Positions 3,138 to 19,560 of a stretch of 20,000 nucleotides of DNA are shown piece after piece; the stretch's first letter is position 1, and each line of letters begins with the position of its first letter. The stretch is from an uncultured virus (IMG/VR IMGVR_UViG_3300008120_000033). Taxonomy: Duplodnaviria; Heunggongvirae; Uroviricota; Caudoviricetes. The notes under the pieces were generated by a model. It worked only from the letters and a program-made list of their open reading frames with translations. It had not been told where the DNA came from and did not search any database. The stretch lies in IMG/VR virus record IMGVR_UViG_3300008120_000033; one strand, written 5' to 3'. A program made the translations under genes and the position numbers.

Positions 3138-3142
3138 AACTG

Positions 3143-3215
3143 GCCCCTATAGCTCAGTTGGTAGAGCAGCGGACTTTTAATCCGTGGGTCGCAGGTTCGA
3201 GCCCTGCTGGGGGTA
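3143..3215 (+). tRNA. tRNA-Lys(TTT), CCA not fully encoded
   Basis: Acceptor GCCCCTA/TGGGGGT, D-arm GCTC-AGTTGGTA-GAGC, anticodon loop CTTTTAA, T-loop TTCGAGC; followed by CCG. Confidence 0.95.
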
Positions 3216-3285
3216 CCGTGACGGTTGCAATACTTGGCACATTGTGATAGACACTAAACACAACAATTATCCCAGGAGGGGTACC

Positions 3286-3672: not shown

Positions 3673-3677
3673 TTCAA

Positions 3678-4358
3678 ATGTCCTCTGAGGCTTTTGGGTT
3701 TGTGCGCCTAGATGGCCACATGGCAGACGATATGTCTGTTGTTAACTCGGCCAGGGTTTCTTTCGCGCGAAATTCTGAAATACATGGCGGAATGACTGGC
3801 AAGGACAAGGGGCTTATCGGGTTTCTCATGCGTGAACGCCATGGGACCCCTTTTGAGCACAACTCATTTCGATTCCATATTAAGTGCCCAATGTTTGTGG
3901 CAAGAGAGTGGTTCAGGCATCGCATTGGCTCATTCAACGAGTTCAGTGCCAGATACTCGGAGGTGCCAAACGATTTCTGGGTACCAGATGAATCATCCAT
4001 AAGGACGCAGGTTGGCAAACCGGGGGCCTACACGTTTGAGCAGGTAGACCAGGTAGTCGCAGAACAGGCTGTTGAAATAATCGCCGGCATGAATCAGGCT
4101 GCATACAACTCTTATGCACTGCTTCTTGAGCTTGGCGTGGCGAAGGAAATTGCTCGTAGTGTTTTGCCAGTATCCATGTACACGCAGTTCTACTGGACAG
4201 TAAATGCCCGCTCTTTAATGAACTTTCTTTCTTTGAGACTTGATGAAAATGCCCAGGCGGAAATACGCGAATACGCCAAAGAGGTGGAGAAATACTTCGC
4301 TGAGACCATGCCTATCACCTATCAAGCATGGGTCGATAACAGCAGGGTAGCTCCTTAA
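3678..4358 (+). CDS. thyX: FAD-dependent thymidylate synthase
   Basis: HGTPFEH, REWFRHRIGSFNEFSARY signature, E.AR..LP, and NARSL.NF..LR...AQ.EIR. Confidence 0.97.
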   Translation: MSSEAFGFVRLDGHMADDMSVVNSARVSFARNSEIHGGMTGKDKGLIGFLMRERHGTPFEHNSFRFHIKCPMFVAREWFRHRIGSFNEFSARYSEVPNDFWVPDESSIRTQVGKPGAYTFEQVDQVVAEQAVEIIAGMNQAAYNSYALLLELGVAKEIARSVLPVSMYTQFYWTVNARSLMNFLSLRLDENAQAEIREYAKEVEKYFAETMPITYQAWVDNSRVAP

Positions 4359-4376
4359 TCGACTAGGCTTATAAAC

Positions 4377-5441
4377 ATGAAGGGCCTAATTCTTGCTGGT
4401 GGTCATGGAACCAGACTGCGACCAATAACGCACACACGAGCGAAGCAACTCGTTCCAATAGCTAATAAGCCAATAATCCACTACGCCATTGAATCAATGG
4501 TTCGGGCCGGCATAAAAGAAATCGGCGTAATTATTGGCAAGAACGGTGCCGATGTGATTGAGTCACTTCGTAACGGTGAACAATTTGGTGCCGAAATAAC
4601 TTACATGAAGCAATCAATACCAAGAGGTCTTGCTGATTGTGTTTCAATAGCTCGTGATTTTCTCGGTGAAGAAAACTTCATCATGTACCTAGGCGACAAC
4701 ATGATTGAGATGGAGTTGTCAACTTTCACGGAAACATGGATATCAGAGGGGGCAAAGATACTTCTCTGCCAAGTTGATAATCCAAAGAGCTTCGGTGTTG
4801 CCCAGTTTGATGACTCTGGAAAAATTGTTCGCCTTGTAGAAAAACCGGAATATCCACCATCGGACATGGCTCTTGTCGGCGTATACATGTTTACCCCAGA
4901 TATTCACGAAGCGGTTGCATCAATTAAGCCATCAGCGCGCGGAGAACTTGAGATTACCGATGCGATTCAGTGGTTGCTTGATTCGGGTAAGCCAGTATTT
5001 CACGAGACACTCTCTGGGTGGTGGATTGATACTGGCAAGAAAGACTCCCTACTTGAATGCAACCGTCTTGTTCTTGACACAATTGAGCGACACATAGATG
5101 GCGATATTGATTTGATGACAGTGCTTGAGGGGCGCATATCCATTCCGGATGGCGTAACGATTGTCAACTCCAGAATTTCAGGACCGGTAATTATTGGTTC
5201 TGGAACGGAAATACGCGACTCTTATATTGGTCCATATACGGCAATCGGCTCAAACTGTGAAATCATCAATTCAGAGATTGAAAACTCAGTAGTGATGGAC
5301 GGAAGCGAAGTAAGAGAAATAAGAAGAATGACTGATTCCCTTATTGGTATGAACGCAAGACTTATGCCATCACCAACAAAGCCAAAATCAACACGAATGA
5401 TGATTGGTGACGACTGCGTAGTGGAGGTAGCAGACCAATGA
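4377..5441 (+). CDS. rfbA: Glucose-1-phosphate thymidylyltransferase, long form with C-terminal left-handed beta-helix
   Basis: GLILAGGHGTRLRPIT, KQL.P, LGDN, VEKP, SARGELEITD, W.DTG; hexapeptide-like tail. Confidence 0.95.
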   Translation: MKGLILAGGHGTRLRPITHTRAKQLVPIANKPIIHYAIESMVRAGIKEIGVIIGKNGADVIESLRNGEQFGAEITYMKQSIPRGLADCVSIARDFLGEENFIMYLGDNMIEMELSTFTETWISEGAKILLCQVDNPKSFGVAQFDDSGKIVRLVEKPEYPPSDMALVGVYMFTPDIHEAVASIKPSARGELEITDAIQWLLDSGKPVFHETLSGWWIDTGKKDSLLECNRLVLDTIERHIDGDIDLMTVLEGRISIPDGVTIVNSRISGPVIIGSGTEIRDSYIGPYTAIGSNCEIINSEIENSVVMDGSEVREIRRMTDSLIGMNARLMPSPTKPKSTRMMIGDDCVVEVADQ

Positions 5442-6004
5442 TGAGAGTAGATTCAGAAATAATCAATGGTGTATCAATCATTATCCCGGATGTATTCCAG
5501 GACGAAAGAGGATGCTTCATAGAGACATATAGAAGAGAATGGTTTCCTAATTCCCGCGAAATGATTCAAGGAAATCGCGCAGACAGGGCATATGGTTCTG
5601 TCGTTGGTCTTCATTATCACCTTCACCAAGCAGATTACTGGTATGTGCCTTTTGGTTCTTGCCGAATAGTGCTTCACGACCTACGCGTAGGGTCATCGAC
5701 AAAAGGCAGAACGCTTATTATGGATGTTGGCGCACCAATCGATGGACCCGGACTTCATAACCACAGTGGCGTGTACATCCCACCAGGTGTTGCTCATGGA
5801 TTTTCTGCCCTTACAGATATGACAATCACGTACATGGTTGATGGTTACTACAACAAGCACGATGAACTTGGTGTTGCTTGGGATGACCCAGCGATAAACG
5901 CTCAATGGGGTGTTAAGTATCCGATTCTTTCTAAAAGGGATATGAACAATCCTCGTATTGACGAAATTCCCGAGCGTTTAATGCCGCATTTCGGTTTGCG
6001 CTGA
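5438..6004 (+). CDS. rfbC: dTDP-4-dehydrorhamnose 3,5-epimerase
   Basis: F.DERG.F.E, GLHYH, DLRVGSST, YIPPGVAHGF, WDDP, P.LS.RD. Confidence 0.95.
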   Translation: MMRVDSEIINGVSIIIPDVFQDERGCFIETYRREWFPNSREMIQGNRADRAYGSVVGLHYHLHQADYWYVPFGSCRIVLHDLRVGSSTKGRTLIMDVGAPIDGPGLHNHSGVYIPPGVAHGFSALTDMTITYMVDGYYNKHDELGVAWDDPAINAQWGVKYPILSKRDMNNPRIDEIPERLMPHFGLR

Positions 6005-6005
6005 A

Positions 6006-6974
6006 ATGAAACAACTAGTAACCGGCGGAGCTGGCTTTATTGGCTCAAGCTACGCACGCCATGTGTTAAAAAATACAGACGATGAAGTTGTCGTATACGA
6101 CGCGCTCACCTATGCCGGAAACATGTCTACAATGATTGACCTAAGGGATGATAAGAGGTTTTCCTTCGTCCATGGAAACATATGCGACCCATCATCACTA
6201 TGGGAAGCAATGAAGCAGTGTGATGTTGTTGTTCATTTTGCAGCAGAAAGCCATGTTGATAGGTCAATAAGTGGCTCTGATGATTTCATACTTACCAATT
6301 GTTTTGGAACAAACGTAGTGATGAATACGGCACTTGCTGTTGGTATCGAAAAAGTTATCCATATAGGTACAGACGAGGTTTATGGCTCAGTAGATGTCGG
6401 TTCATCGCTGGAGTCGGACCCACTTGAGCCACGGTCTCCATACTCAGCATCAAAAGCCGGTTCTGACCTCATAGCTCTTTCATATCACCACACACACGGG
6501 CTTCCGGTAACAGTCACTCGGTGTACGAACAATTTTGGACCGTTTCAATATCCAGAAAAAGCAATACCGCTATTTGTGACCAACCTGCTAGAAGGAAAAA
6601 ACATTCCACTATATGGGGACGGGCTAAACGAGAGAGACTGGCTATTTGTAGACGACCATTGCTCTGGAATTCTTCTAGTGCTAAACAAGGGTCTAGATGG
6701 AGAGATTTATAACATTGGCGCCGGAAACGAAACGCCAAACATCGAACTAGTGATGAAAATACTTGAGCTAACGGATTTTGGTGAAGACAAAATTTCATAT
6801 GTCGAAGACAGAAAGGGTCATGACCGAAGATACTCCGTCGACATTCAAAAAATTTCCGACCTTGGCTGGAGGCGTTCTCGTTCGCTAGATGAAGCTCTTG
6901 CCGAAACAGTTGGGTGGTATATAAATAACAAGTGGTGGTGGGAGCCACTCAAGAAAAAAGAAGGAATAAAGTGA
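6006..6974 (+). CDS. rfbB: dTDP-glucose 4,6-dehydratase
   Basis: GGAGFIGS, DALTYAGN, HFAAESHVDRSI, TDEVYG, YSASK, DRKGHDRRY. Confidence 0.97.
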   Translation: MKQLVTGGAGFIGSSYARHVLKNTDDEVVVYDALTYAGNMSTMIDLRDDKRFSFVHGNICDPSSLWEAMKQCDVVVHFAAESHVDRSISGSDDFILTNCFGTNVVMNTALAVGIEKVIHIGTDEVYGSVDVGSSLESDPLEPRSPYSASKAGSDLIALSYHHTHGLPVTVTRCTNNFGPFQYPEKAIPLFVTNLLEGKNIPLYGDGLNERDWLFVDDHCSGILLVLNKGLDGEIYNIGAGNETPNIELVMKILELTDFGEDKISYVEDRKGHDRRYSVDIQKISDLGWRRSRSLDEALAETVGWYINNKWWWEPLKKKEGIK

Positions 6975-7831
6975 GAGTTCTTGTAACTGGCGCTAATGGT
7001 CAGCTCGGCAGTGAAGTTGTTGCCGAGTGTCTCGCTAATGGTGACGAAGTTATCCCAATGACGAGAGAAGATGCCGACCTAGCAGACTTGCTAGCTGTGG
7101 GTAAATTTATCCAGGAACTTAGACCGACTCATATTATTCACTGTGCAGCAATGACCGGTGTCGATAAGTGTGAAACATACTCAAGGGAAGCAGTGAGAAT
7201 AAACACTCTTGCCACTGACATGATTGTTAGAACGGCCTATGAAATAGGGGCTCACGTCACATACATCTCAACAGACTACGTATTTAGTGGTAGACAAGAT
7301 GAACCATACGTCGAGAGCGACAGTCAATTCCCAATAAACAAGTACGGTATAACCAAGAAAAACGGAGAGCTTGTTCTTCGCCCAACAGATGCAATCGTTC
7401 GAGTCTCATGGTTATTTGGCCCAAATGGAAATAACATCGTAAAGACTGTTCTAAATCTCTGCAAAACCCAGGACGAGCTTAGATTCGTGGATGACCAAAT
7501 AGGCAATCCCACGTATGCGCCAGATGCCGCACGAGTTATTTCGAAAATATCCCGCAATAACATGGTGGGGATTTTTCACGTAACAAATGAAGGCTCAGTG
7601 TCGTGGTACGAATTTGTACGCGACCTACTCGATATTGCTGAAGTAAAGCATGTTGTTCTCAAGCCCGTCTCGAGCGTCGACATGCGTGTGTCTGGCTCAG
7701 CACTAAGACCGAAGAATTCAGTGCTCGCCAATACGAGACTTACTCCCGAAGCTGGATTTGAGCCGATGCCCCACTACAGGAACGCCCTCCAGAGAATGGT
7801 CGACGAACTTGCTGCTAGAGGAAGTATCTAG
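6971..7831 (+). CDS. rfbD: dTDP-4-dehydrorhamnose reductase
   Basis: GTGA overlap start: (M)RVLVTGANGQLG; ISTDYVF.G, YGITK, DQ.G.PT, RP.NS.L. Confidence 0.95.
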   Translation: MRVLVTGANGQLGSEVVAECLANGDEVIPMTREDADLADLLAVGKFIQELRPTHIIHCAAMTGVDKCETYSREAVRINTLATDMIVRTAYEIGAHVTYISTDYVFSGRQDEPYVESDSQFPINKYGITKKNGELVLRPTDAIVRVSWLFGPNGNNIVKTVLNLCKTQDELRFVDDQIGNPTYAPDAARVISKISRNNMVGIFHVTNEGSVSWYEFVRDLLDIAEVKHVVLKPVSSVDMRVSGSALRPKNSVLANTRLTPEAGFEPMPHYRNALQRMVDELAARGSI

Positions 7832-8694
7832 TTAGAGAACCAGACCAGGTTTTCTGCAGCCATTAAGACCTTTGCAACAATATCCTGCTGAGTTAACGGC
7901 TTCTCCGGAACACCAGCTTTCGTAAGTCCCCAGTAATTTAGGCCCTCGATGTGCTTCTTCCTAGTTGCATCATCATAAACGCCAGTTGGGGTCTTCATAC
8001 CCATAAGCACCTGAAGGTCTAGAACAGCAACTGACTTCTCGCCCCACTCGTACTTAATAAGCATCAACTTATCTGGGTCGTCGTAATGGAATAGCTGTTT
8101 TGGCTTTCCTCCAGCACAAGGCAGTGCGCCCCAGCCGCCAAAGCCAACTGGTTCTTTCTTGTAGTGATAAATCTGTGGGACACCATGGCGCTCGGCAAAT
8201 TCCCGCCCACGGTCAACTACTACTTCCCAACCCCAAAGAGCAATGCGATTCCCTACAAGAATCTGCTGCTCCTTTGTGGCTTCCTGTGGAGTGGGGGCAA
8301 ATTCCTCACCACCCCAGCGCTCCCATGTGCCCATCTGGCCCTGTCCAAGGACACCCTTAGCAAATGTGCCGGTATTCATGATTCCGACACCACCACTAAA
8401 GCGTCCACCGTTCTGCCAATTGCTGCCAGTCTCGCAGCGGGCCAGCTCGTCCCAGAACTCGATTCTGGGCTTTGGCCTGTCCGTCTTTGTTAGCTGATTG
8501 CGGTCGTAAAGACCTGCTTCCAGAGCCGGGGACTCGGGCTCCTCTTTCGGAACCTCGGCTTTTTTAACCATCTCAGTATTGCTATTCACCCCCTCATTCT
8601 TTGCTTCCGTTTCTGTCTGTGGCCAGAAGGACCAGCCGACCAGCAACGGAATAAGGGCATATATGGCAATGGAATAGAGACGGTTAGTCTGCAT
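7828..8694 (-). CDS. Resuscitation-promoting-factor (Rpf)-like lytic transglycosylase with N-terminal anchor and probable C-terminal peptidoglycan-binding domain
   Basis: WDELARCETGSNW..GG, TW..WGG..FAP.P..AT.EQQI.V..R, GW..C match the Rpf core with catalytic Glu. C-terminal GEKSVAVLDLQ..MG...TGVYDDAT resembles PG_binding_1. Confidence 0.85.
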   Translation of the reverse strand: MQTNRLYSIAIYALIPLLVGWSFWPQTETEAKNEGVNSNTEMVKKAEVPKEEPESPALEAGLYDRNQLTKTDRPKPRIEFWDELARCETGSNWQNGGRFSGGVGIMNTGTFAKGVLGQGQMGTWERWGGEEFAPTPQEATKEQQILVGNRIALWGWEVVVDRGREFAERHGVPQIYHYKKEPVGFGGWGALPCAGGKPKQLFHYDDPDKLMLIKYEWGEKSVAVLDLQVLMGMKTPTGVYDDATRKKHIEGLNYWGLTKAGVPEKPLTQQDIVAKVLMAAENLVWFSN

Positions 8695-8766
8695 TGGTTT
8701 TTCCTGACCTCGGTGGATAAGACGCTCGTGTTAGTAGCCGGAGCACCCGATATCTGGGGTACATCT

Positions 8767-8796
8767 ATTTTACCCCCAACATCCCAAAAAGTGCAA
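8767..8796 (-). promoter_or_regulatory. Sigma70-type promoter of the Rpf-like gene
   Basis: Minus strand TTGCAC-18nt-TAAAAT. Confidence 0.65.
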
Positions 8797-8964
8797 ACAA
8801 CCCCCTAGCCCGCGCCCCCCGCCGGCCGCCGCAACCCCAATAAAAGCAACGCTTTTAGAACAAAGCTGTATACCCAAAAAAATTTTTGGGAACGACCCTC
8901 TTTTTTGGATAAATTTATCCGGGAACCCTGTACATGCTCATATATTTGCGTTACCCTAAATCCC

Positions 8965-9258
8965 ATGACTACATATTCCACCGACTATGAATTCGACCCC
9001 ATCGGAGAGAGCTTCAAATACAAAGAGTCAATGGTCTTTGTGACAAACGACAACAGTGAATGGTTGGTCGTTTTTGATGGTGAAAGGGCCTACCTCTACA
9101 GGATGGAACGCACAGAATCTGGCGGCGACAAAATCGCGCGGCACTATGCAAGCTTCCTTGCTTCAGGAAACGAGTATTTCGAGTTCCTAAACGACCGCTC
9201 TGGAACGATGGTGAATTTCGCGCGGCGCTTATTATCTTCTGTCTCTTCCACGAGCTAG
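8965..9258 (+). CDS. Hypothetical protein (97 aa), probably leaderless
   Basis: TGTACA-17-TACCCT (8929-8957), 7 nt before ATG 8965. Confidence 0.7.
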   Translation: MTTYSTDYEFDPIGESFKYKESMVFVTNDNSEWLVVFDGERAYLYRMERTESGGDKIARHYASFLASGNEYFEFLNDRSGTMVNFARRLLSSVSSTS

Positions 9259-9309
9259 AACGCTGTTAAGACGGTCCAGTAAGGCTAGAGAGCCACTCTG
9301 GGGAACCGA

Positions 9310-9402
9310 TTACAGGTACATACCCCCGGGTACGAACACCAGAAGCAACAGCAACAGAATAATCAAACAAACAATCAACACATCAATTAGCTCGTCAGCC
9401 AT
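9310..9402 (-). CDS. Small hydrophobic protein (30 aa)
   Basis: MADELIDVLIVCLIILLLLLLVFVPGGMYL; start overlaps the upstream stop. Confidence 0.45.
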   Translation of the reverse strand: MADELIDVLIVCLIILLLLLLVFVPGGMYL

Positions 9403-9604
9403 CCATGCGTTCCATGACGAACGAAGCAATCATGGGGTCAATCTTGTCCCTGTGAAACGGGTCATGCACATGACCTCTTACCTCTACTGCGATGTCTGGA
9501 GCCACCTCGTGGAGGACGTTAAAGAAGGCCTGCCCGAGTGGCCATTCGCCGGCCATCGAATCATGCTTTTCGTGAACAAGGGCAAGAAACTCGTCGTATG
9601 TCAT
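9395..9604 (-). CDS. Hypothetical phage protein (69 aa)
   Basis: MTYDEFL...WPLGQAFFNVL...DPFH; TACCAT -10 lies 6 nt before ATG. Confidence 0.75.
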   Translation of the reverse strand: MTYDEFLALVHEKHDSMAGEWPLGQAFFNVLHEVAPDIAVEVRGHVHDPFHRDKIDPMIASFVMERMDG

Positions 9605-9769
9605 GGGGTCATGGTATCGCCGGCCGCGACCATATTGCCGGCTCCTAGGGCAGGTTTGGATAAATTTAAGTGAAGTAATTTGGAGTCCAAAATTTCTGTA
9701 GTAGCTGGCCACCGGTTGGGGGGTGCCAGTGAAAGTAGGCGGGGCTCACAGCGCGTGGGGTCGGCATCT

Positions 9770-10083
9770 ACGCAATGATGGACTGTCACGCAGTGTGTCA
9801 CGGGGTGAGCGCAACGCACACGCACACGCAATGCGCACACACACGCATACGCAACGCAGTAGCAACGCACACGCAATGCGCAACGATTACGAAAGTGTGT
9901 CAAGCAGTGTGTTACACACGCACACACGCACGCCGTTGTAAGTGTGATGCGAACACACACGCAAGCAAGCGACAAGCAAACACACAAAGTGTAAGTGAGT
10001 GTGTGTGAAGTGTTGAGAGACAAGCAGTGTGAGTGTGTTACGCACAAGCAGTGAGCAAGGCTAGCGATACAGTGAGCAATGCG
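9770..10083. repeat. Low-complexity alternating purine/pyrimidine tract (ACGCA/CACAC/GTGTG units)
   Basis: GCAACGCACACGCA at 9811 and 9862, CAAGCAGTG at 9901/10021/10045; overlapping ORFs are Cys/Val or His/Thr artefacts. Confidence 0.85.
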
Positions 10084-10326
10084 TCAGTGAGTAGGTGAGT
10101 CACTATCGTGCTCGTTGTCATAAGTACGCAGAGAGAAGTAGAACAAGGCAGAGTACACACACGCCACGGGTAGCCAGCCGACATACCACCCACCTAGTGA
10201 GGCAAGCCCTAGTAGTCCCATACCTATCGCCGTGTAGGCACGCACGACAACAGTGCGCCCATCTACCTCAGGCAGTGAGCGTTCAGGTATCGCCCTCTCC
10301 CACCCATCTTCTTGACCGAATGCCAT
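10084..10326 (-). CDS. Small membrane protein (2 TM), probably leaderless
   Basis: Hydrophobic central segment; minus-strand GTGGCA-17-TAGGGT, 6 nt before ATG. Confidence 0.65.
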   Translation of the reverse strand: MAFGQEDGWERAIPERSLPEVDGRTVVVRAYTAIGMGLLGLASLGGWYVGWLPVACVYSALFYFSLRTYDNEHDSDSPTH

Positions 10327-10428
10327 ACCATTACCCTAGTCATTGGTCGCCCAAGTGCCACGGGTGAGCAGGTAAATAAGTCGCACGAACCCTTTACATT
10401 GACACACCCACCTACTACTGTGAGCGGT

Positions 10429-10614
10429 ATGGATACAACAACGACCCACATACGACCCAGAGTCATTCACGCCCTGCCCCTTGGCAGTGTGGTACAAGTG
10501 TTCGCCAAGAGCACTGATACAGATGGCGTCTCACACACGCAGGTAGACACCATTGAGTGTGTCTCCCCTGAGCAAGCAGTTGCTATTGCGAGGTTCTATG
10601 AGGCGATAGGCTGA
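10429..10614 (+). CDS. Hypothetical protein (61 aa), probably leaderless
   Basis: TTTACA-17-TACTGT (10393-10421), 7 nt before ATG (MDTTTTHIRP...). Confidence 0.7.
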   Translation: MDTTTTHIRPRVIHALPLGSVVQVFAKSTDTDGVSHTQVDTIECVSPEQAVAIARFYEAIG

Positions 10615-10618
10615 GCCA

Positions 10619-10798
10619 ATGAGCGAGACATTCCGACTAACAGTCGCAGTGCGCAAGCACAAAGACCTTGACAATCCGACAACAGTTGATGAGGCTGTTG
10701 CAACTGTGTACAACCTCTTGACACAAGGCGCACTCATAGAAGTAGTGAGCGTGTTGCCTGAACAAAAGAGTAGTGGCAATGAGGTCAAGTGGGGATAG
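10619..10798 (+). CDS. Hypothetical protein (59 aa)
   Basis: Manual ORF MSETFRLTVAVRKHKDLDNP...EVKWG filling the gap between neighbours. Confidence 0.6.
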   Translation: MSETFRLTVAVRKHKDLDNPTTVDEAVATVYNLLTQGALIEVVSVLPEQKSSGNEVKWG

Positions 10799-10835
10799 GT
10801 GACACGTCTCTCACGCAGTGATACTGTTGTGAGCA

Positions 10836-11207
10836 ATGAACACCTATCTGTTTGTCACGCCCTATGCGGTATTGCGTGAACGCATAAGTGTTGGTGCGCC
10901 GTCATTCTTTGAGATAGATGAGCGTGAAAGAATGACGAGAATTCACCTCGCAGCACTGTTCACCACCAAAGTGCTTGATGCTTGTCGTGCGCACGACGTA
11001 ACGCCGTGGAGCGCCACGGGTGTCCCATTTCAGATGGTATCCCTGATGGCGGAAGCCGAGAGACAGTTAGGTATCGCAACATCGGATACCGAACTGGAAC
11101 TAATGAACAGATGGAAGCGGTACGAAGCGCAGTACATCGCAAGCCAACGCAAGCAGTATGCCTACTCAACATTCATACGAATGACCTCAGGTGCATTCAG
11201 TAGATAA
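10836..11207 (+). CDS. Hypothetical protein (123 aa), probably leaderless
   Basis: GTGACA-17-TACTGT (10799-10827), 8 nt before ATG; stop TAA lies inside a GTAGATAAG box. Confidence 0.7.
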   Translation: MNTYLFVTPYAVLRERISVGAPSFFEIDERERMTRIHLAALFTTKVLDACRAHDVTPWSATGVPFQMVSLMAEAERQLGIATSDTELELMNRWKRYEAQYIASQRKQYAYSTFIRMTSGAFSR

Positions 11208-11261
11208 GGCGCAAGTGCCACGGGTTGCCAAGTTTGTCCCCAGTGTGGTACGCTCGCAGTT

Positions 11262-11648
11262 ATGAGAGAAAAGAACTATGCAGTGTGCTCGGCGTGCGAC
11301 ACACGCACTGAGTGCAACTCGCAACTCATCTACCCTGATAATGGTTGGGTCTTACCATTTGACACATTCGGATACTACGGTGGATTTGACGACATGATGC
11401 CTGTGCTCGCAGGCGACCAACGAACGAGAGAATGGATTTTCTGTCACGATTGCGTTGTGAAGTTTCTCGAGCTTTTCCCCCGACTCGCTGAGAAACTCGG
11501 AGCGAACTGTCACCCTTGCGATGACGAAGTGCCGTGTTGCCGTCACGCTTGGCAAGGCACAGACCTGTTCGGCACTGACATCTATGGTGTCCACGCTCGT
11601 ACTGCCTGGCCTGATGGCCAATGGCACGATGACCCGCCGACTACCTAA
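11262..11648 (+). CDS. Cys-rich putative zinc-binding protein, probably leaderless
   Basis: CSAC, CHDC, CHPC, CC; TTGCCA-18-TACGCT, 7 nt before ATG. Confidence 0.75.
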   Translation: MREKNYAVCSACDTRTECNSQLIYPDNGWVLPFDTFGYYGGFDDMMPVLAGDQRTREWIFCHDCVVKFLELFPRLAEKLGANCHPCDDEVPCCRHAWQGTDLFGTDIYGVHARTAWPDGQWHDDPPTT

Positions 11649-11662
11649 CTACGGGTAGATAA

Positions 11663-11890
11663 CTAGTTTCCCTTGCGTTGTGTGTGTCTGATTGACTCGT
11701 AGCAACGGAGCATCGCTTTCACTATTGACGTGCACGAACCACTTGCCCAGTAATCACTAGGCGTGCCGTCTTCAAGCGTCGGTACACCACGTTTCCACGC
11801 AGTGCATTTCCATTGGCCAGCGATGTTCGTTAGTTGGAAGTCCATGCCATTGAGGTGAAACCACTTAGTGAACTGCGTGATGTCACTCAT
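11663..11890 (-). CDS. Hypothetical protein (75 aa)
   Basis: GGAGG upstream of ATG 11890 (MSDITQFTKWF...). Confidence 0.65.
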   Translation of the reverse strand: MSDITQFTKWFHLNGMDFQLTNIAGQWKCTAWKRGVPTLEDGTPSDYWASGSCTSIVKAMLRCYESIRHTQRKGN

Positions 11891-12091
11891 ATCGTTCCCG
11901 TCCTCCGTGCTTGTGGAATGTCCGTAAAGTACTGGCATCTCGTCAGCATACCGCTAATCAGCGGGGCTCCCGGCAGGGTGTAAGGCTGGGGCTTGCTGTG
12001 GCGTGGGGTGGCAGGTAGATAAGTCGGGAAATACTTGTAAGTCTGTACCACGTGTGATACGGTGAGTGTGTCGCCAAACGAAAGGGAAAAA

Positions 12092-12370
12092 ATGGCTACT
12101 ACACACCACACCAACCGAAACCGAGCGCAAGACGTGACAGTAATGCGCACTCTCGCTGTCCTGTCGTGGGCGTTCCCGTTGTTCGGGGTTGCTCTGCTGG
12201 CAGTGTCTTACTACTCACACGCTCTGTACGACTTGCTCGTGGGCGGTGTGTTCGCAGTGTTCGGGTCAATCGGCGCAACGCTGATGACAATCGCAATGAG
12301 CAACGCACTTGCCGAAGAGCGCAACCACGAGCGCCAAGCCCACCCGTCCTATCCGTTCCGTAATCGCTGA
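12092..12370 (+). CDS. Two-TM membrane protein
   Basis: Promoter TTGTAA-17-TACGGT (12035-12063), AAAGGGA RBS, two hydrophobic helices. Confidence 0.7.
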   Translation: MATTHHTNRNRAQDVTVMRTLAVLSWAFPLFGVALLAVSYYSHALYDLLVGGVFAVFGSIGATLMTIAMSNALAEERNHERQAHPSYPFRNR

Positions 12371-12384
12371 AAGGTAGATAAGTC

Positions 12385-13083
12385 ATGACAACCGCAACCG
12401 ACACCAAAACCGCCGAGGTCATTGCTGAAATGCTGACCGAGAATACGGGTAGGAGTATGCTTGATAGTGGCGACTACTACGGCAGACACTACGAGAAAAA
12501 CGCAGGCAAGGTGCTTGCTGATTTTGAGAGCGAACCGCAAGCGTGGGCGAGTTCCTACGGCGTGACGCTTTCCGTGTTTCACTATCTCACGGCGCGCGTC
12601 AAGTATGACGACTCACTCAATGCTGAGTGGGATTCGTTCTGCTCTCACAATGCTGATGACGGGTACTTCTCACTCATGCAGGATTTCGCCAATGAGCGCG
12701 ATTCGTCGGCGCATACGTGGAACACCTATAACGGGGACGATTCACTCTCGCAAACCTTGCAGGGTGTCACGTTCGCAATCGGTGAGCGTGTGTACGCGCT
12801 GATTCAGATTCACGGGGGTTGTGACGTTCGCGGTGGCTATACGCGTCCGCGCGCATTCCGCATTGAGATGAGTGACGCGTCATACTTTCCATGCGATAAC
12901 GATTCCTATCACGTCACGTGTGACAGTGGCGAAGAGACTCACGGACTCTCGTGGTACGGCGAGTGGATTTCGTGGGAAGGTTCTTGCGCTGACGATTCGT
13001 CCTATCCCGAGTACACGGGTGAAGGCATGAAGTGCGCGCAGTGTGGCGCAGGCATGACCGTACACGCGCCCGAGCCCTACTAG
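12385..13083 (+). CDS. Phage-type hypothetical protein with C-terminal CxxC
   Basis: 232-aa ORF with motifs ENTG.S.LDSG..YGR and IHGGCDVRGGYT.P; function unknown. Confidence 0.8.
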   Translation: MTTATDTKTAEVIAEMLTENTGRSMLDSGDYYGRHYEKNAGKVLADFESEPQAWASSYGVTLSVFHYLTARVKYDDSLNAEWDSFCSHNADDGYFSLMQDFANERDSSAHTWNTYNGDDSLSQTLQGVTFAIGERVYALIQIHGGCDVRGGYTRPRAFRIEMSDASYFPCDNDSYHVTCDSGEETHGLSWYGEWISWEGSCADDSSYPEYTGEGMKCAQCGAGMTVHAPEPY

Positions 13084-13246
13084 CGAGCGTTCCCTATCTC
13101 CGCTTGCTAGTCCTGCCCCTGCCCTGCTTAGTAGATAAGTGGGGTGGGGGCTAGGTCTTATCTACCTACTTGCATTCTCTGCCCGAGAGCAACCGAAGCG
13201 CGAACGCGCGAGGGCGCTAGCAGCCGGGGCTCCTGAGTGAGTAGTG

Positions 13247-14497
13247 CTACCTCGTCACTGTCACGATGCGAGGCTTATCTACCACTTCATCTGTTGCGCT
13301 TCCACCTCTGCGGTGCGCATTTATCCAGCGAGCACGGTGCATCTGTTGCGATGGATACCACTGATTACGCCAGTGTCCACGCACAAGGTGTGCGAGCGAT
13401 ACCTTGCGCCCTGTTGCTGAATCACTATCACCGTAGAGCGCCCTGCGTAGTTCTAGCGTGGTGATACTGTCAGTGTTCACGCGTCCAGCCCTTGCGCCCC
13501 TGCGAGAGAACGGGCGAGGCACACGGGTTGTTTCAACATCTACGTACTCATTCATCAAACGCAACAGTGCAACGATGAATCTACGAGACCTGCGATAACG
13601 GTCAAAACTTGACTGATTCATTACTTCTTCAAACGAGTCATTTTCAAGTTGAAAACCATCTTCTCCATACATAAAGTAGTAACTGTCAATCAGATTCATT
13701 TTCAACGAGATGAGTGGGTTTCTTACGACAAGTGTCAAACCGTCAATCTCTGAGCTGACAATACGCCCAAACACACCAACGATGATTGCGTTCATCGGGT
13801 GCTCTGTTCCGTCCTCTTCAACAAAACGTGCGTGATTCAATTCCTTCTTCTCGTAGTGTTCCAACTCAAGTTGGAATTTGTATTCAGGACTAGCAGTGCC
13901 ATACTGCTTCGCTACCGATTCAAGCACGTGAGGATAGATTGACTCGCAATCGCCCCACGAAAATGCAACGATTTCGTAAACGTCTACGCCATCAAGGTAT
14001 CCGTCCTCTGTCTGCGTGTACTTACGGGTTCCCTCAACGGTTCCACCGTATTGACGAACCTTATCTACTAGTTCGTCAATGTCATCCGATAAGCATCCAG
14101 CTGCAACCCTCACCTGGATTGGGCGTTCAAGGAAAACCATTGCACACGGCGTGTAGACATCAGTGCGAAAAAGAACTTCATCAGGCATTGACTCCGATGC
14201 TGTGTGCACCAATTCGTGTAGTTCTTCCGATAGGTACACAGTGTCTGCACGGGAAATGATTTCATCATCCGTCAAACGCCACACGTTATGAGCAACGCGC
14301 GAGTCTGCGAACTGCTTTTCTTTGTTCTCCAATGTAACTACCGACTCAAACAATCCATTCTGCTGAGCAGTCCACTGAGATGCGTGCAATAGTCGGTCTG
14401 CGCTCGGGTGGCCTTTGCGCCACACCAGGTATTCAGTCTGCATTTCATGTGCCTCTAATGGCGAGGTCAACCCCTTTGGGCTTTCAGTACCAGTCAT
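13247..14497 (-). CDS. Hypothetical protein with C-terminal VRGHWRNQW basic motif, probably leaderless
   Basis: 416-aa ORF; minus-strand TTGATT-17-TATTAT (14504-14532), 6 nt before ATG. Confidence 0.85.
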   Translation of the reverse strand: MTGTESPKGLTSPLEAHEMQTEYLVWRKGHPSADRLLHASQWTAQQNGLFESVVTLENKEKQFADSRVAHNVWRLTDDEIISRADTVYLSEELHELVHTASESMPDEVLFRTDVYTPCAMVFLERPIQVRVAAGCLSDDIDELVDKVRQYGGTVEGTRKYTQTEDGYLDGVDVYEIVAFSWGDCESIYPHVLESVAKQYGTASPEYKFQLELEHYEKKELNHARFVEEDGTEHPMNAIIVGVFGRIVSSEIDGLTLVVRNPLISLKMNLIDSYYFMYGEDGFQLENDSFEEVMNQSSFDRYRRSRRFIVALLRLMNEYVDVETTRVPRPFSRRGARAGRVNTDSITTLELRRALYGDSDSATGRKVSLAHLVRGHWRNQWYPSQQMHRARWINAHRRGGSATDEVVDKPRIVTVTR

Positions 14498-14605
14498 GTC
14501 ACCATAATAAACAATGCAAAGAGAAAAATCAACTCTTCGACTTATCTACCTGTCCACCCCAGCTCACCCTGGTCAGCGGGGCTCCTGCTGGACTTATCTA
14601 CCCAT

Positions 14606-14640
14606 AGATAAAGGGGGCGAACCGATTGGCTCACCCCCTC
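14606..14640 (-). terminator. Intrinsic terminator of the 14672-14971 gene
   Basis: Minus-strand RNA AGGGGGUGAGCC-AAUC-GGUUCGCCCCCU, 12-bp stem with two G-U pairs, then UUAU. Confidence 0.75.
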
Positions 14641-14671
14641 AATCAGGGAACCCTCGCTTGGCGAGACTTAT

Positions 14672-14971
14672 CTACACGCTGTCTGTGTGCTGTGTGATTG
14701 CGCCATCAACGGCTCGCTGAGCGTTCCGAAGTCCTGCGGTCTTGCAGGTCGTGGCAAGCAGTTGAGCGATTGTCTGTTGCAGACAAGATGCGTAGAAGTC
14801 GGCCATCGCTGGTGTCTGGGTGACCTTCTCAAACGCGTCCTGTGCTTGCAGGGCGAACTGGTGGAACTCACGGATGATGTGACCATCGAACATGTCGATT
14901 TCTCGTGCGAGGTATGCGCTGAGAAGCGATGGCATCGCCTCTGCTTTCACTGGGATGATTGGTCTGGACAT
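14672..14971 (-). CDS. Hypothetical protein (99 aa)
   Basis: GAAAGGGG RBS before ATG; TAG stop lies inside a GTAGATAAGTC box; terminator follows. Confidence 0.7.
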   Translation of the reverse strand: MSRPIIPVKAEAMPSLLSAYLAREIDMFDGHIIREFHQFALQAQDAFEKVTQTPAMADFYASCLQQTIAQLLATTCKTAGLRNAQRAVDGAITQHTDSV

Positions 14972-15164
14972 GGTGACCCCTTTCGGTCGGTTCGGGGGCG
15001 TTGGTGCCTCCTATCAACACTGTACCACATACGGTTCAGACTTATCTACCCGTTCCCCGTGCGCCCAACCCACCCCCGAGGGGGAGCCCCGCCTGAAATC
15101 ATCTGCCTGAAAGGGAGTACTTTCAGATAGATTTATCTACAAGCAAATAGCGAACGGAGACGAA

Positions 15165-16190
15165 ATGTCACACGACATAGAAATCAACGAAGACGGCACA
15201 GCCAGAATGGCTTACGCCGACAGGGAAATCCCTTGGCATCGCCTTGGAACACCAATGAAGGGCTTGCAGACGGCAGAGGCAATGCTCGCCGCCGCCCAGG
15301 CCAACTTTGATGTCGTGACCACACGGGTAGCAGTGTGTGACGATAATGGCGAAGTAATCAGAAACTCTGATGGCTCGCTCGTTCTAGTACCAGACAGTAG
15401 AGCCACAGTGCGTGTCAATGGTGACGGCACGTTCAATGGTCTTGCAACGGTTGGCACACGCTACGTGGTGCAGCAAAATCGTGAATGTCTTGACTATGCG
15501 CTCGCTATCGCAGGAGCATCTACGGGTGATGCAGTAGTAGATACTTGCGGTGTTCTCAATGGTGGCAGAGAGTTCTTCTCATCTCTTGACCTGGGTGCGC
15601 TTGTCATTGACCCAATGGGCGTGAATGACCAGATTGAGCGTTATCTACTAGTTCGCAATGGGCACGACGGAAAGACGGCGATTACGTTCGCAAACACAAG
15701 TATTCGCGCCGTATGCAAGAACACTGTTGTTGCAGGTCTTAGCAGTGCACGGAGAGTGTTCACTGCTCGTCATACACGCAACGCCGAGCGTGCGATTGAA
15801 GAAGCAAACAGTGTGCTCGAAATCTCCAATGAATGGGCAAAAGCGTTTACAGCAACTGCTGAGAAACTTCTGTCAATCCCCGTTGCGCCTGGCTCAAAAG
15901 TGCTGAACGAAACACTGAATGCAGTATTTCCACTGGAAACAAGTGCAACAGAGCGTCAGAAGCGCAACAGAGACAATGTGCTTTCACTTGTTCGTGCGGT
16001 GTATGACAACGACAACAACGCAAAGGGCTATGGGTACAACGGGTGGTCACTAGTGAATGCTATTGGTGAATACCTTGACCACTATCGTGATGCAACAGTG
16101 ACAGAGCGTGCGCTTGCGTCAATGGATAACAATTCTTGGGTGACTCGTTCAAAGATAAAAGCTCAGGATTTCCTCTTGTCAAGTCGTTGA
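15165..16190 (+). CDS. DUF932 (phage/plasmid TIGR03299-like) protein
   Basis: PWHRLG, Y.VVQN, YLLVRNGHDG, T.IR.VC.NT, RHT, W...NAI.EY.DH motifs. Confidence 0.9.
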   Translation: MSHDIEINEDGTARMAYADREIPWHRLGTPMKGLQTAEAMLAAAQANFDVVTTRVAVCDDNGEVIRNSDGSLVLVPDSRATVRVNGDGTFNGLATVGTRYVVQQNRECLDYALAIAGASTGDAVVDTCGVLNGGREFFSSLDLGALVIDPMGVNDQIERYLLVRNGHDGKTAITFANTSIRAVCKNTVVAGLSSARRVFTARHTRNAERAIEEANSVLEISNEWAKAFTATAEKLLSIPVAPGSKVLNETLNAVFPLETSATERQKRNRDNVLSLVRAVYDNDNNAKGYGYNGWSLVNAIGEYLDHYRDATVTERALASMDNNSWVTRSKIKAQDFLLSSR

Positions 16191-16238
16191 TAACAATTCC
16201 CTGTATCATTGACTTATCTACGGACATAGCGAGGCCTA

Positions 16239-16682
16239 ATGAGCGAAGACGACGAGAACTTTTACGAGTTCCTCTCTGACGGCGATGGCGACATGCCTAC
16301 ACCGGCAGAACTTGCCGTCTGGCTATCCGACTTCATGTCTCAATCACAGAAAGCGCGACAGATGTATCGTTCGCATTTTTGCAACATCATCGCCAATCGT
16401 ATTTGGGATGAGTTCGGCGTTGAGGGTATGTGCGACCTCATGATTGCTATTGACAAGAAGGCTGGCTGGATTTCAGACATCATCATTGAAGATGCTGACA
16501 TTCATGATGCTCTGTTCAAGACGTACGGTGTCTATGACAATGATGCGATAATAAAAGCACGAATGAGCCGTGAAATGATTGAGTTGAACAAGAAGATTTG
16601 GCGCCTTCGCAGAAAGTACTCGAAGTTGATTGCCGAAGAAATCTTCCGTGGCGTCTCGCCAGAAGAAGAAGACGCTAACTAA
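16239..16682 (+). CDS. Hypothetical protein (147 aa)
   Basis: GAGG RBS, clean ORF converging on the helicase gene. Confidence 0.75.
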   Translation: MSEDDENFYEFLSDGDGDMPTPAELAVWLSDFMSQSQKARQMYRSHFCNIIANRIWDEFGVEGMCDLMIAIDKKAGWISDIIIEDADIHDALFKTYGVYDNDAIIKARMSREMIELNKKIWRLRRKYSKLIAEEIFRGVSPEEEDAN

Positions 16683-18591
16683 TCTTGTCAATCATGCTCA
16701 GAATGAGCTGAACCGCTCCATCGTCCGCAACCATTTCTCCGCCCTCTACTGCTGCATTCACTACTGAACGCTTGTTCTCAATTAGTGAATAGATGTCCTC
16801 GTCTATCGTGCCAGCAGTGAGCATGTAGGTGGACGTAACGCTCCCCTTTTGCCCAATACGGTGAAGACGGCTGTATGTCTGGTCTACGTCTGCGGGTGTC
16901 CATGGCAACTCAATGAACAAGCATTCTTCCGATGCGGTGAGAGTGTGACCAGTCTTGGCTGCTTGTATCGAAAGAACGATGACTGGCGCCTTATCTACCG
17001 AGAGTGTCTGGAACTTGTGCTTATTGTCCTCTACTTCCTCTACTGCCATTCCGCCCTGAATACGAAGGTTGCCATACTTTCTAGAAATCTCATCCACGAT
17101 GTCTCTGTGGTGAGCGGCAACTACGACTTTTTTACCATTTTCCACCCGAGCCTGAATCCATTCCATTGCGGCTTCCATCTTTGCCTTTGCTGAAAGCCGG
17201 CGAAGAACGGACAAACGAACCAAATGCTCGTTTGCCTCTGCTCTAATCATTGCGGCAATGGCGGCACCGTACGATGGCTTGCCTTGCTCGATTGCCATTT
17301 GCCGTGCTCTGTCTGCGATGTAAACAAGAATGTCATTCTCTGCCTTCTTGTATTCCTTCATCGCCGCGCTCTCGCCCTCAATGAGAATCTTGCTGTGAAT
17401 CACGGGTGGTAATTCGGAGAGAACTTGGTCTTTCGTACGCCTGATGTAACACGTGCCTCGCAGGCGCTCATTGAGTTCATCTAGGTGCGAGTGTCCACTG
17501 ATGTTCCACTGACCGAACTTGTCCTGATAGGCAGCGCAGTAGCGTCGGTAGAAGCCCCACAGACCACCAAAGTCTTTGAGTCTTCCAAGAATCTCGAGCT
17601 GAGAGGCGTATTCATTCGGCCTGTTTGTTACTGGCGTTCCAGTGAGACACAGAACAATGCCCTCTTTGGGGGCGCTACGGGCTATCTTGACTGCTGCTTT
17701 AGTGCGCTGTGCTGTTGGCGTTTTGCAGTAGTGACTCTCATCGAAGATGTACGAGCGGTGACCAGACAAACTCTTCTCCCATGTTGCGAGATTGGAATAA
17801 CCAACCACTACAACGTCATAGGAGCCAGCGTCAGGGAACTCTTTTCTATTGGTCACCGTGGCGACTCTCCGATGTGGCAACCACTTACGGTATTCAGACG
17901 CCCAGTTAAGTACAAGGCTTGGAGGACACACAACAACGGCTGGATACGAGTCGTAGACATACTCAACGGTCGCCAGTGCCTGAATGGTCTTTCCTAGACC
18001 CATCTCATCTGCAATGAATGTACGTAGTGCTTTTGATGCATAGGCAACACCTGCTCGCTGATAAGGAAGTAGGTCACCCTGCAACTTATCTACCTGCACC
18101 CCAGCGTCCGTGGAACGAGAAGCCTCAATAAACTCGTTCATTTTTTCCGTTACGTCATCTGCTATCGCGATTACTTCGGGCTCGACATAGACGGAGAATG
18201 TTTCTGCCCAGTTGATGACTTCCTTGACGGATGAGAGGGGCGCCTGCCATGCAGACTTCTTGCTGTCCCACGAGACTGCGGGTATTTGCTTAACCGCTTT
18301 AATGATAACCCTCTCGTAGGGGAACCTCATTATTATTGAACCATCCAGCAAGAACACCCTTGCTGAGGCTGTCTTGGGCTTATCTACCAAGAACTTCATT
18401 GCATCCAGCGCAACTTCAAAGTCGTGCTTCATTGCGAAATCTCTGCCCTCGTTCATTGAGGTGATTGGGAGGCGCCACACTTTGCCAAGCTTGTCCCATT
18501 TGGCTCCAGTGATTTTCTTGATTTCATTCACCTGGCCAGCGTCGTACGGAAAGTCCAGTACTACTTCGCCATTCTCTAGGTACATCCTCAT
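16675..18591 (-). CDS. SNF2-family helicase/ATPase with two N-terminal HARP-like repeats (SMARCAL1-like)
   Basis: ADEMGLGKT, DESH, LTGTP, RR.K, GHTLT, QTYSRLHRIGQ; repeats FPY...IK.I....WD..K.W..P. Start 18591 chosen from TAGGCT -10 lying 7 nt upstream. Confidence 0.92.
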   Translation of the reverse strand: MRMYLENGEVVLDFPYDAGQVNEIKKITGAKWDKLGKVWRLPITSMNEGRDFAMKHDFEVALDAMKFLVDKPKTASARVFLLDGSIIMRFPYERVIIKAVKQIPAVSWDSKKSAWQAPLSSVKEVINWAETFSVYVEPEVIAIADDVTEKMNEFIEASRSTDAGVQVDKLQGDLLPYQRAGVAYASKALRTFIADEMGLGKTIQALATVEYVYDSYPAVVVCPPSLVLNWASEYRKWLPHRRVATVTNRKEFPDAGSYDVVVVGYSNLATWEKSLSGHRSYIFDESHYCKTPTAQRTKAAVKIARSAPKEGIVLCLTGTPVTNRPNEYASQLEILGRLKDFGGLWGFYRRYCAAYQDKFGQWNISGHSHLDELNERLRGTCYIRRTKDQVLSELPPVIHSKILIEGESAAMKEYKKAENDILVYIADRARQMAIEQGKPSYGAAIAAMIRAEANEHLVRLSVLRRLSAKAKMEAAMEWIQARVENGKKVVVAAHHRDIVDEISRKYGNLRIQGGMAVEEVEDNKHKFQTLSVDKAPVIVLSIQAAKTGHTLTASEECLFIELPWTPADVDQTYSRLHRIGQKGSVTSTYMLTAGTIDEDIYSLIENKRSVVNAAVEGGEMVADDGAVQLILSMIDKIS

Positions 18592-18755
18592 GGGTAAAAG
18601 CCTAGCAATAAATAGGTAGATAGGTAAGGCCGGCGAGATGCGTTCCGAGGTGTACCGAGAAAGGAGTGGAACGCACCCCACCAGCCCTTGTAGTCAACAT
18701 ACCAGCATTTACCATTATTTGCCAAGCCGGCGATGCGGCATGTATCCTGTAGCGC

Positions 18756-18848
18756 ATGAACCGAGAGAATAGAGATTCAATGATTATCCTTGGGATAGTT
18801 TTCTTTGTCGTGATGGGCCTTCTTTGGGCCATAGACAGGATTCGCTAA
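18756..18848 (+). CDS. Small single-TM protein (30 aa), probably leaderless
   Basis: TTGCCA-18-TATCCT, 7 nt before ATG; MNRENRDSMIILGIVFFVVMGLLWAIDRIR; TAATG overlap with the next ORF. Confidence 0.6.
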   Translation: MNRENRDSMIILGIVFFVVMGLLWAIDRIR

Positions 18849-19057
18849 TGAGCGGAGGAATACCAGCAATGTATCGCTGCATTGTCTGCGATTTGCCAAT
18901 CCGCCCCCAGGACGGAACAACCGTTCGTCTTGCTGTTGTGTGGCTAAAGTCAAAAGGCACCACAATTAGCCGTGTCCAAGAAGAACTTCATAACTACAAG
19001 CACGAGTTCTGTGACGAGCGCAGACTTGAAGAAGCAATGCAGCCGAGCTTGTTTTAA
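18848..19057 (+). CDS. Small putative zinc-binding protein
   Basis: CIVC...HEFC; alternative start at 18869 after GGAGGA. Confidence 0.65.
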   Translation: MSGGIPAMYRCIVCDLPIRPQDGTTVRLAVVWLKSKGTTISRVQEELHNYKHEFCDERRLEEAMQPSLF

Positions 19058-19147
19058 AATCTGAGCTACAAGTCGACAACAAAAAAACGAAAAATCGACA
19101 CGCCCTGAGTTCCCCTGTAGAAAAGTCACCTATGGGAAACTATTGCT

Positions 19148-19285
19148 ATGGCAAAGCGCGACCAAGACCCAGCACCAAATCCCGAATCTGCTGCTGTCCC
19201 ACCTAAGAAACGTTCCGTTCTTGTGTCAGACGCAAAGAAAGCGACCCGCCCCCCCAAGGCAGGTCGCCGTCCTTGTTGTCCGTAA
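19148..19285 (+). CDS. Small basic Pro-rich peptide (45 aa)
   Basis: MAKRDQDPAPNP...KAGRRPCCP; fills the intergenic gap. Confidence 0.4.
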   Translation: MAKRDQDPAPNPESAAVPPKKRSVLVSDAKKATRPPKAGRRPCCP

Positions 19286-19302
19286 TTTTCGGACCGACTT
19301 AT

Positions 19303-19560
19303 CTACTTGTTCTCCGTATAGTGGTTTCGCCATTGCGAAGGTGAATGCGCGTGCTCGACAGCATCTTTATGCTGCTCGCTTTCGTACATTCGAACGATGT
19401 GAATACAGGGGTCGTGGCCCTCGTCAAACTCTTCGTCTTCCTCAAGTGCAGTAGGGAGACCGTCGTGCGTGTAGCACACTGGCGGTCCACACCATCCACG
19501 GGTAATTCCTATAGCAATCCAATCGTCAAACGAAATCGACTCTTGGTCAACTTCTGACAT
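19303..19560 (-). CDS. Hypothetical phage protein (85 aa) with Cys/His motifs
   Basis: W..IG...GWC.P.VC.THDG.P...DPC.H; TAG stop lies inside a GTAGATAAGTC box. Confidence 0.8.

Follow-up and report, generated by a model that had tools for sequence, protein, structure and literature searches.

The 20,000-nt stretch of an uncultured virus of the Caudoviricetes that we analysed (IMG/VR record IMGVR_UViG_3300008120_000033; hereafter the window) carries part of a regulatory array that is real, under strong selection and for the most part oriented with transcription. The unit of this array is the 13-mer AGGTAGATAAGTC, an asymmetric cis-regulatory site with about 90 repeats in a 28-kb block, whose small genes, probably of the early type, are individually promoted. 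The explanation that we favor, with a probability of roughly 45%, is that the array is a stoperator-like operator and roadblock system for a putative phage factor controlling transcription.

In the window the array is recognized by the 8-mer GTAGATAA, which is present in 19 exact copies, while dinucleotide shuffles hold 0.33 copies on average and four at most, and none of the 200 shuffles reaches 19. A preliminary description of the same sequence had reported these 19 copies as far above chance, and we recovered the same ones. Five of them lie on the + strand (11200-13131) and 14 on the - strand (13158-19299). Alignment of the copies gave the full 13-mer site, whose logo has no internal symmetry; nothing is conserved downstream of the 13-mer or beyond it, and at most sites flanking similarity is absent. 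Allowing up to three mismatches, the window contains 27 matches to the 13-mer against 3.6 expected.

Whole-genome counts refer to the nearest whole record, G001, a virus contig of 151,107 bp with a 127-bp end repeat, to which the window aligns in reverse at 53753-73923 with 99.6-99.7% identity. This genome holds 100 copies of the 8-mer (44 on + and 56 on -) versus 6 for the reversed control, and 90 sites with at most two mismatches versus 7 for the control. The preliminary description had considered a uniform distribution over the whole contig as an outcome that would speak against it; counted by strand in G001, the motif is instead concentrated, with 83 of the 90 sites within 35-65 kb, and its orientation is arranged block by block. 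The array extends in G001 about 17 kb past the end of the window, hence the window covers just the final 9 kb of the 28-kb array, that is, its edge. This agrees with the earlier statement that the first 11.1 kb are empty save for a one-mismatch copy: no exact 8-mer occurs at 1-11199, and the outlier, also among the 27 matches, is AGGTAAATAAGTC on the + strand at 10370-10382, a variant which recurs four times in G001. A search of phage records for near-identical sequences gave no match. Literature searches with the exact motif strings returned unrelated primers only, and in the accessible part of a freshwater actinophage paper (PMC10914622) such an array goes unmentioned. As a side observation, about 143 bp of G001 are missing from the window (window 9893-9906 versus G001 63861-64018), the two alignments sharing a 14-bp overlap at this point.

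In IMG/VR, 450 relatives of the capsid protein were found, and we compared 12 further whole records (13 with G001), together with 80 loci around the AAA ATPase gene for motif variants and 40 loci for covariation. Six of the 12 records possess their own over-represented variant of a common core: GAGTAGATAA[G/C]T in G002 (119 copies), GGTGTAGGTAAGTC in G003 and G004 (45 and 80 copies), CTAATAGATAACT in G005 (78 copies), ACTAGATAAGT in G006 (47 copies) and TAATAGATAAGTC in G007 (79 copies). The variant of G004 is also given as GTGTAGGTAAGTC, and the 80 loci add further ones, such as GGGGGATAAGTC, AAAGGATAATG and GTGGGATAACT. In G009 the sequence CCCACCCCTAACCGACAAATC precedes hairpins, the repeat of G010 is coding, and no site array was found in G011, G013 and G014. 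The sister lineage G008 repeats a promoter of about 40 bp instead, in about 30 near-identical copies at 87-96 kb; this repeat, TTTTGGAAATTTGGTATC...TGnTAnnGT, stands 28 times on one strand, each time preceding a small gene, and represents a different solution. The 5' part of the motif (GG, AG, AA or AC followed by TA) and the G/C position in its 3' part vary independently among the variants, which would fit recognition by two modules. The distance between motifs is uncorrelated with the local protein phylogeny (rho 0.12), and the motif sequence differs even between phages whose capsid proteins are 92-94% identical.

The sites inside genes follow these variants as well. A gene of 529 amino acids (aa) carries two in-frame sites in 5/5 genomes compared, at most about 10 alignment columns apart across genomes, and these sites read VDK in G001 and G002, VGK in G003 and G004 and LDK in G006; two further genes switch residues likewise with the variant of the genome. 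Judged by these alignments, what the in-gene sites preserve is the nucleotide motif and not the peptide. Since about 100 sites per genome change together, the orthologous in-gene sites included, a co-evolving trans-acting reader is implied. One in-gene candidate, the 8-mer in the AAA ATPase gene, was rejected as a selected site, because the conserved Walker-B peptide DEVDK explains it.

The orientation of the sites is for the most part that of the genes. In G001 the array consists of a leftward gene block at 35-52.2 kb, a rightward block at 52.4-60.5 kb and a leftward block at 60.7-63.3 kb, and the sites follow this order; many inverted site pairs are present besides. The single flip at about 13.15 kb, claimed previously, therefore holds inside the window, but not for the genome with its three orientation blocks and inverted pairs. 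The flip coincides with the junction of the last two gene blocks of G001, where convergent genes end at 13083 (+) and 13247 (-). At this point (13115-13167) we find an inverted pair of sites, 13129-13141 (+) and 13155-13167 (-), and a 16-bp hairpin at 13115-13151 (z -2.5 on the + strand). In related phages, the orthologous junction harbors an inverted pair in the phage's own variant in G002 and G003, one site in G004 and a pair at other offsets in G006.

The preliminary description had held that the polarity is not simply transcription-linked, and this view is not supported by the counts. In the window 17 of the 19 copies are co-oriented with the containing or flanking gene, and across seven related genomes the same is true for 307 of 362 unpaired 8-mers, 55 being anti-oriented. 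Where an inverted partner stands at most 60 nt away, the copies divide evenly in these seven genomes (41 co-oriented versus 43 anti-oriented), as pairs should give. Among five genomes, 45 in-gene sites are on the coding strand and 4 on the opposite one, and sites between co-directional genes are co-oriented in 136 cases versus 41. The bias inside genes is present in spite of the coding properties of the motif, which has stop codons in two of three frames of its own strand, where one frame is permitted, versus an opposite strand that is stop-free in all frames. The gene calls, including those that define the three blocks of G001, were made by a crude, self-trained caller of open reading frames (ORFs), which missed at least one real gene (11262-11648).

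The sites occur in several contexts, and they accompany almost all sigma-A-type promoters of the block. In the block of G001 we predict 21 sigma-A-type promoters of the form (TTGTAA/-35)-GTCTGAACC-N5-TGGTACAGT, alternatively written (TAAG)TCTGAACC-N5-TGGTACAGT, versus 2 in the reversed control. Fusion with a site is seen in 13 of the 21, a site stands 12-22 nt upstream of 6 more, and the other 2 have none within that distance. The 13 fused sites occupy positions -39 to -27 of an extended -10 promoter, thus replacing the -35 element. The core TAGATAAG is accompanied by TGnTAnnnT at the required distance in 12 of its 87 copies in G001 and in none in G002, G003, G004 and G006; a TTGGAA -35 element follows the site of G004 at a distance of 0-35 nt; and about 70 of the 90 sites in G001 have no -10 partner at any fixed distance. 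In five genomes, 50 of 202 non-genic sites lie on the upstream stop codon or at most 10 nt past it. Further sites adjoin an ATG and fill the spacer after the ribosome-binding site, as at 12372, and inverted site pairs at gene ends fold strongly (z -5 to -6).

We explain these data by a phage-encoded, sequence-specific factor that would bind the sites. Sites overlapping promoters would then be operators, at which initiation by RNA polymerase would be blocked, and the remaining sites would be roadblocks to elongation in one direction; the whole block could be shut off at a set time in this way, in the manner of the L5 repressor acting on its operators and stoperators. A blocking factor is favored because the sites are position-independent, orientation-dependent, dense and confined to one block, have promoter-overlapping members and differ between phages, all of which matches the description of L5-type sites. 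In the accessible parts of the sources (PMC9283540, PMC6550527), L5-type repressor sites are described as asymmetric sequences of 13-14 bp, present in 20-30 copies per genome and oriented with transcription; some are operators, most have no promoter association, and between relatives the motif varies. As far as this description reaches, our array shares with the stoperators of Cluster A phages the asymmetric 13-mers, the many copies, the mostly single orientation relative to transcription, the minority of sites at promoters (here 19 of about 90, at predicted promoters) and the variants between relatives. Of the analogues named in the preliminary description, the L5 stoperator is the closest.

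The array also differs from Cluster A. Here 90-120 sites are packed in one block of 28-36 kb, while the L5-type sites, in the same accessible descriptions, number 20-30 over a 50-kb genome. Many of our sites stand in frame inside genes or provide the TAG or TAA stop of a gene, hairpin-forming inverted pairs are common, and the motif sequence is unrelated. We detected neither a gp71-like repressor nor an integrase, and no further sign of lysogeny. As tests for the repressor and for a temperate life style were negative, we do not place the array in the L5 family.

A number of observations weigh against the operator and roadblock explanation, and most of them concern the factor itself. Scans of the predicted proteins with Pfam and PHROGs, at the sequence level, revealed no L5-type repressor, no gp71-type protein (helix-turn-helix (HTH) plus Stoperator domain) and no integrase, and neither these scans nor the screens below yielded a candidate factor. 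Recognition helices stay the same between phages with different motifs in the 68-aa XRE protein, the 124-aa protein with HA and sigma-4-like HTH domains, the 224-aa HTH protein and the TrmB-like protein; a sigma-4-like HTH is present in two proteins, in both with unchanged helices. Two Arc-like proteins, the shorter of 53 aa, and two WhiB proteins were also found, and alignments of the longer Arc-like protein and of the WhiB proteins show no pattern that tracks the motif. Covariation screens over 67 whole-genome protein families, and over 18 families encoded at most 10 kb from the AAA gene at the 40 loci, together with contrasts of ortholog identity, gave no family that convincingly tracks the motif: the best rho of the column-wise and distance covariation at the 40 loci was 0.47, not significant after 18 tests. 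Presence and absence over the 12 relatives pointed only to proteins that evolve fast and for which phylogeny is a confounder; one of these is a 160-aa possible winged-helix protein beside the TrmB-like gene. The phage does not look temperate: no integrase was found, a ParA-like gene occurs in some relatives only, and the ParB-like genes belong to the DNA-metabolism module. Furthermore, 15% of the unpaired sites are anti-oriented, and the site count partly reflects duplication, since a duplicated cassette of about 130 bp accounts for some 10-13 of the sites; it is composed of a GGAGCCCCG...CGGGGCTCC hairpin, a G-rich stretch, the site and a promoter.

Alternatively, the site may be a promoter element, either a phage-specific box, replacing or supplementing the -35 element, for a host RNA polymerase redirected by a phage activator, similar to MotA of T4, or the promoter of an unrecognised phage RNA polymerase. 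The middle promoters of T4 consist of a MotA box at -30 plus a -10 element, and the 13 fused promoters of G001, in which a phage-specific box takes the place of the -35 element at a fixed distance from an extended -10, resemble them. The sites share the direction of the genes and mostly stand upstream of them, and phage polymerase promoters typically keep a constant core while varying around it from phage to phage. There would also be room for a divergent polymerase in a 2070-aa protein of the virion module, to which PDB gave no sequence match, Pfam no family and the Atlas no look-alike. (Beside it, a 2967-aa polyvalent protein with prohead protease, ArdC-N, MPTase-PolyVal and UvrD-type helicase domains is encoded at G001 110345-119248, the 2070-aa protein itself at 102423-108635.) However, most sites lack a -10 partner and any conservation past the 13-mer, the fused arrangement is absent from four relatives, and the spacing of 0-35 nt in G004 is not phase-consistent for an activator. 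Sites over stop codons, next to ATGs and in convergent pairs are difficult to reconcile with a promoter. Pfam reports no MotA or AsiA domain, and among the predicted proteins neither a sigma region 2 nor a T7-type RNA polymerase was detected, although the control of the T7 search was silent, which makes that search uninformative alone. We consider a promoter role of the site rather unlikely.

About as probable to us is that the motif acts in RNA, as a mark of early transcripts for a phage-specific endoribonuclease, for a 3'-end or termination factor or for a translational repressor, a logic comparable to that of T4 RegB, which cuts early mRNAs. The strong sense-strand bias, also within genes, agrees with this proposal, as does the fact that orientation matters and position does not. 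The motif holds TAG and TAA in two frames, and stops in all three after a preceding T; the sites at or just past stop codons, those between ribosome-binding site and ATG and the strong hairpins of the inverted pairs could all be read at the RNA level, and a site followed by a terminator-like hairpin recurs, also in G009. On the other hand, the promoter-fused sites are upstream of the start of the accompanying transcript, and we found no candidate for an RNase or an RNA-binding protein. A conserved small RNA with the motif or its complement was likewise not found: 0 intergenic sites have flanks conserved across relatives, and Rfam (E at most 0.1) reported three tRNAs outside the array plus one sub-threshold match over one of these tRNAs, with no other family.

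The array could also have arisen passively, through the duplication of regulatory cassettes or at the boundaries where small gene cassettes recombine, in which case no dedicated binding factor would be involved. T4-type phages contain promoter-early stem-loop (PeSL) cassettes and phiC31 contains conserved inverted-repeat operators; in both, as here, regulatory cassettes (stem-loop plus promoter, or operator) are repeated amid many small early genes. The recurrence of the 130-bp cassette and the many small genes of the block, which vary between relatives, are in line with such an origin. In contrast to these systems, the most conserved unit here is an asymmetric 13-bp site, which also stands alone or in genes and differs between relatives. 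Most sites have no flanking similarity, the in-frame sites of conserved genes track the genome-specific variant, and selection on in-gene orientation would be left without explanation. We regard this alternative as quite improbable.

The weakest alternative, which the preliminary description had raised from the polar, over-represented 8-mer converging on one point of the window, namely signals of the KOPS, Chi or Ter kind that a DNA translocase or the machinery of recombination or replication would read, or sites for DNA entry, can hardly be maintained: the array is limited to 28 of 151 kb without genome-wide skew, its orientation changes with each gene block and includes many inverted pairs, and a sequence that differs between phages with capsid proteins 92-94% identical is unlike the signal of a host machine. 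What survives of the proposed directional sites for a DNA-binding protein is a factor for transcription control, which is the most plausible role.

A further reading, which we hold to be less likely than not, concerns the lineage as a whole. A widespread lineage of large uncultured phages may time its early genes by a factor of no recognisable family, reading a 13-nt directional tag about every 300 bp, even in coding sequence; this might be a protein whose two recognition modules evolve separately, or else an RNA-directed activity, and the fast drift of its specificity would give each phage a private code of transcription or mRNA control. If the sites work as proposed, this would be the densest known directional control array of a phage (90-120 versus 20-30 L5-type sites per genome) and the first such array beyond small temperate actinophages. 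The natural series of variants, including the coding sites that read VDK, VGK and LDK, provides ready-made specificity mutants for finding the factor and for studying how a recognition code co-evolves with about 100 targets. In addition, the motif is a practical marker by which this regulatory block and the promoters in it can be located in uncultured phages of an abundant group.

The DUF932 unit of the window, comprising the DUF932 gene (15165-16190) and a 147-aa gene (16239-16682) on the + strand, is inverted relative to its neighbors in 7/7 genomes. The preliminary description had emphasized that - strand copies continue across it. Three such copies indeed exist, but only the copy at 16214, within the - strand site 16211-16223, is a good site (2 mismatches). 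The copy at 15641 lies antisense over the codons for ERYLL and is found in 3/7 genomes, and the copy at 15133 is part of a palindrome, TAGATAAATCTATCT (15127-15142; the copy aligned to the site spans 15130-15142), located 24-26 nt upstream of DUF932. The palindrome is kept in 5/7 genomes independently of the motif variant of the genome, and on this sequence evidence it is an element separate from the array sites, which may be the DUF932 promoter or operator. It occupies the same place in G002, G005, G006 and G007, in G005 inverted relative to the gene. The two real exceptions to co-orientation stand where the - strand SNF2-type helicase ORF (16675-18681), which has three in-frame sites of its own (16988, 18083 and 18377), would read through antisense into this unit. 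As the helicase ORF and the 147-aa gene overlap at their 3' ends, helicase read-through would meet the - strand sites head-on, and these sites would fit a directional block on it.

The remaining sites of the window illustrate the contexts described above. At the left edge of the array the site 11198-11210 (+), with an exact 8-mer, supplies through its own TAA (11205-11207) the stop of ORF 10836-11207. It is followed by a sigma-A-type promoter at 11225-11254 (+), read directly in the sequence as TTGCCA, 18 nt and TG-n-TACGCT, and by the conserved 128-aa gene 11262-11648 (+), with relatives in 11/12 other genomes; the next exact-8-mer site, 11653-11665 (+), begins 5 nt past the stop of this gene. 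A perfect site at 12013-12025 (+) is separated by 9 nt from TTGTAA (12035-12040), which is followed after 17 nt by TACGGT (12058-12063), and this predicted promoter would drive gene 12092-12370. Another perfect site, 12372-12384 (+), separates the ribosome-binding GAAAGG from the ATG (12385) with which the 232-aa gene 12385-13083 begins.

To the right of the flip point, the 416-aa gene 13247-14497 (-) contains two in-frame 8-mers, at 13275 and 14061, both reading V-D-K. Its ATG at 14497 follows by 6 nt a predicted - strand promoter of TTGATT, 17 nt and TATTAT (14532-14504), and a perfect - strand site (14539-14551) is located 6 nt upstream of this -35 element, the whole arrangement covering 14504-14551. 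Two - strand sites, 14591-14603 and 14665-14677, lie beyond it, the TAG of the second being the stop of gene 14672-14971. A site fused to a promoter, GGGTAGATAAGTC-TGAACC-N5-TGGTACAGT at 15019-15051 (-), is predicted to drive this gene. Further on, the - strand site 19296-19308 provides the TAG stop of gene 19303-19560 and is followed by a terminator-like hairpin with a T-run at 19268-19240 (feature 19240-19308); in total, three genes of the window use the TAG or TAA of the motif as their stop codon. The match AGGTAGATAGGTA at 18614-18626 (+), with two mismatches and likewise among the 27, had been listed as an exception in orientation, which it is not: it lies upstream of, and is co-oriented with, the small conserved + strand gene 18824-19057. 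Start codons are found 6-7 nt past the -10 hexamer at 11262 and 14497 of the window, and likewise at 44394, 48813 and 53005 of G001. With predicted promoters ending 5-7 nt before the start codon, such transcripts are probably leaderless.

Several other repeats accompany the array. The words GGAGCCCCG and CGGGGCTCC, about 26 nt apart, form a second repeated element with GC stems of 9-10 bp and loops of about 17 nt, found in the window at 9740, 11962, 13225, 14577 (between the - strand sites 14591-14603 and 14539-14551) and 15084, and 37 times in G001, approximately one per intergenic region of the array. These words are frequent also in relatives without the site motif, and the stems may be terminators without a U tract. 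The promoter spacer includes a near-dyad, CTGWACC-N5-GGTACAG, which overlaps the -10 element, occurs at 15019-15040 of the window and 20 places in the 35-63 kb region of G001, and is conserved between phages whose site variants differ; we speculate that the 68-aa XRE protein of the array, with its invariant helix, is a conceivable binder of it. Reading TGAACC as part of an extracytoplasmic function (ECF)-type promoter was ruled out by eye, the conserved -10 GTT being absent after it. The word ACGGTGGTGGA, or ACGGTGGCGGA, is repeated upstream of promoters (G001 41196, 43310, 47025 and others) and is the most over-represented word in the array-less relatives G011, G013 and G014.

The host is probably an actinobacterium, as suggested by the set of Pfam matches (two WhiB, DUF732, Rpf-like transglycosylase, HA and DUF6011 domains) and by the closest GenBank phage terminases, among which are Gordonia phage proteins with about 42% identity. 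The three tRNA genes of the window are at 1108-1181, 1186-1257 and 3143-3215. A complete-looking dTDP-rhamnose pathway with RmlA, RmlC, RmlB and RmlD-type domains is encoded at about 4377-7831 (G001 66093-69547), in a module free of motif sites, and genes for ThyX and dCMP deaminase are situated near it.

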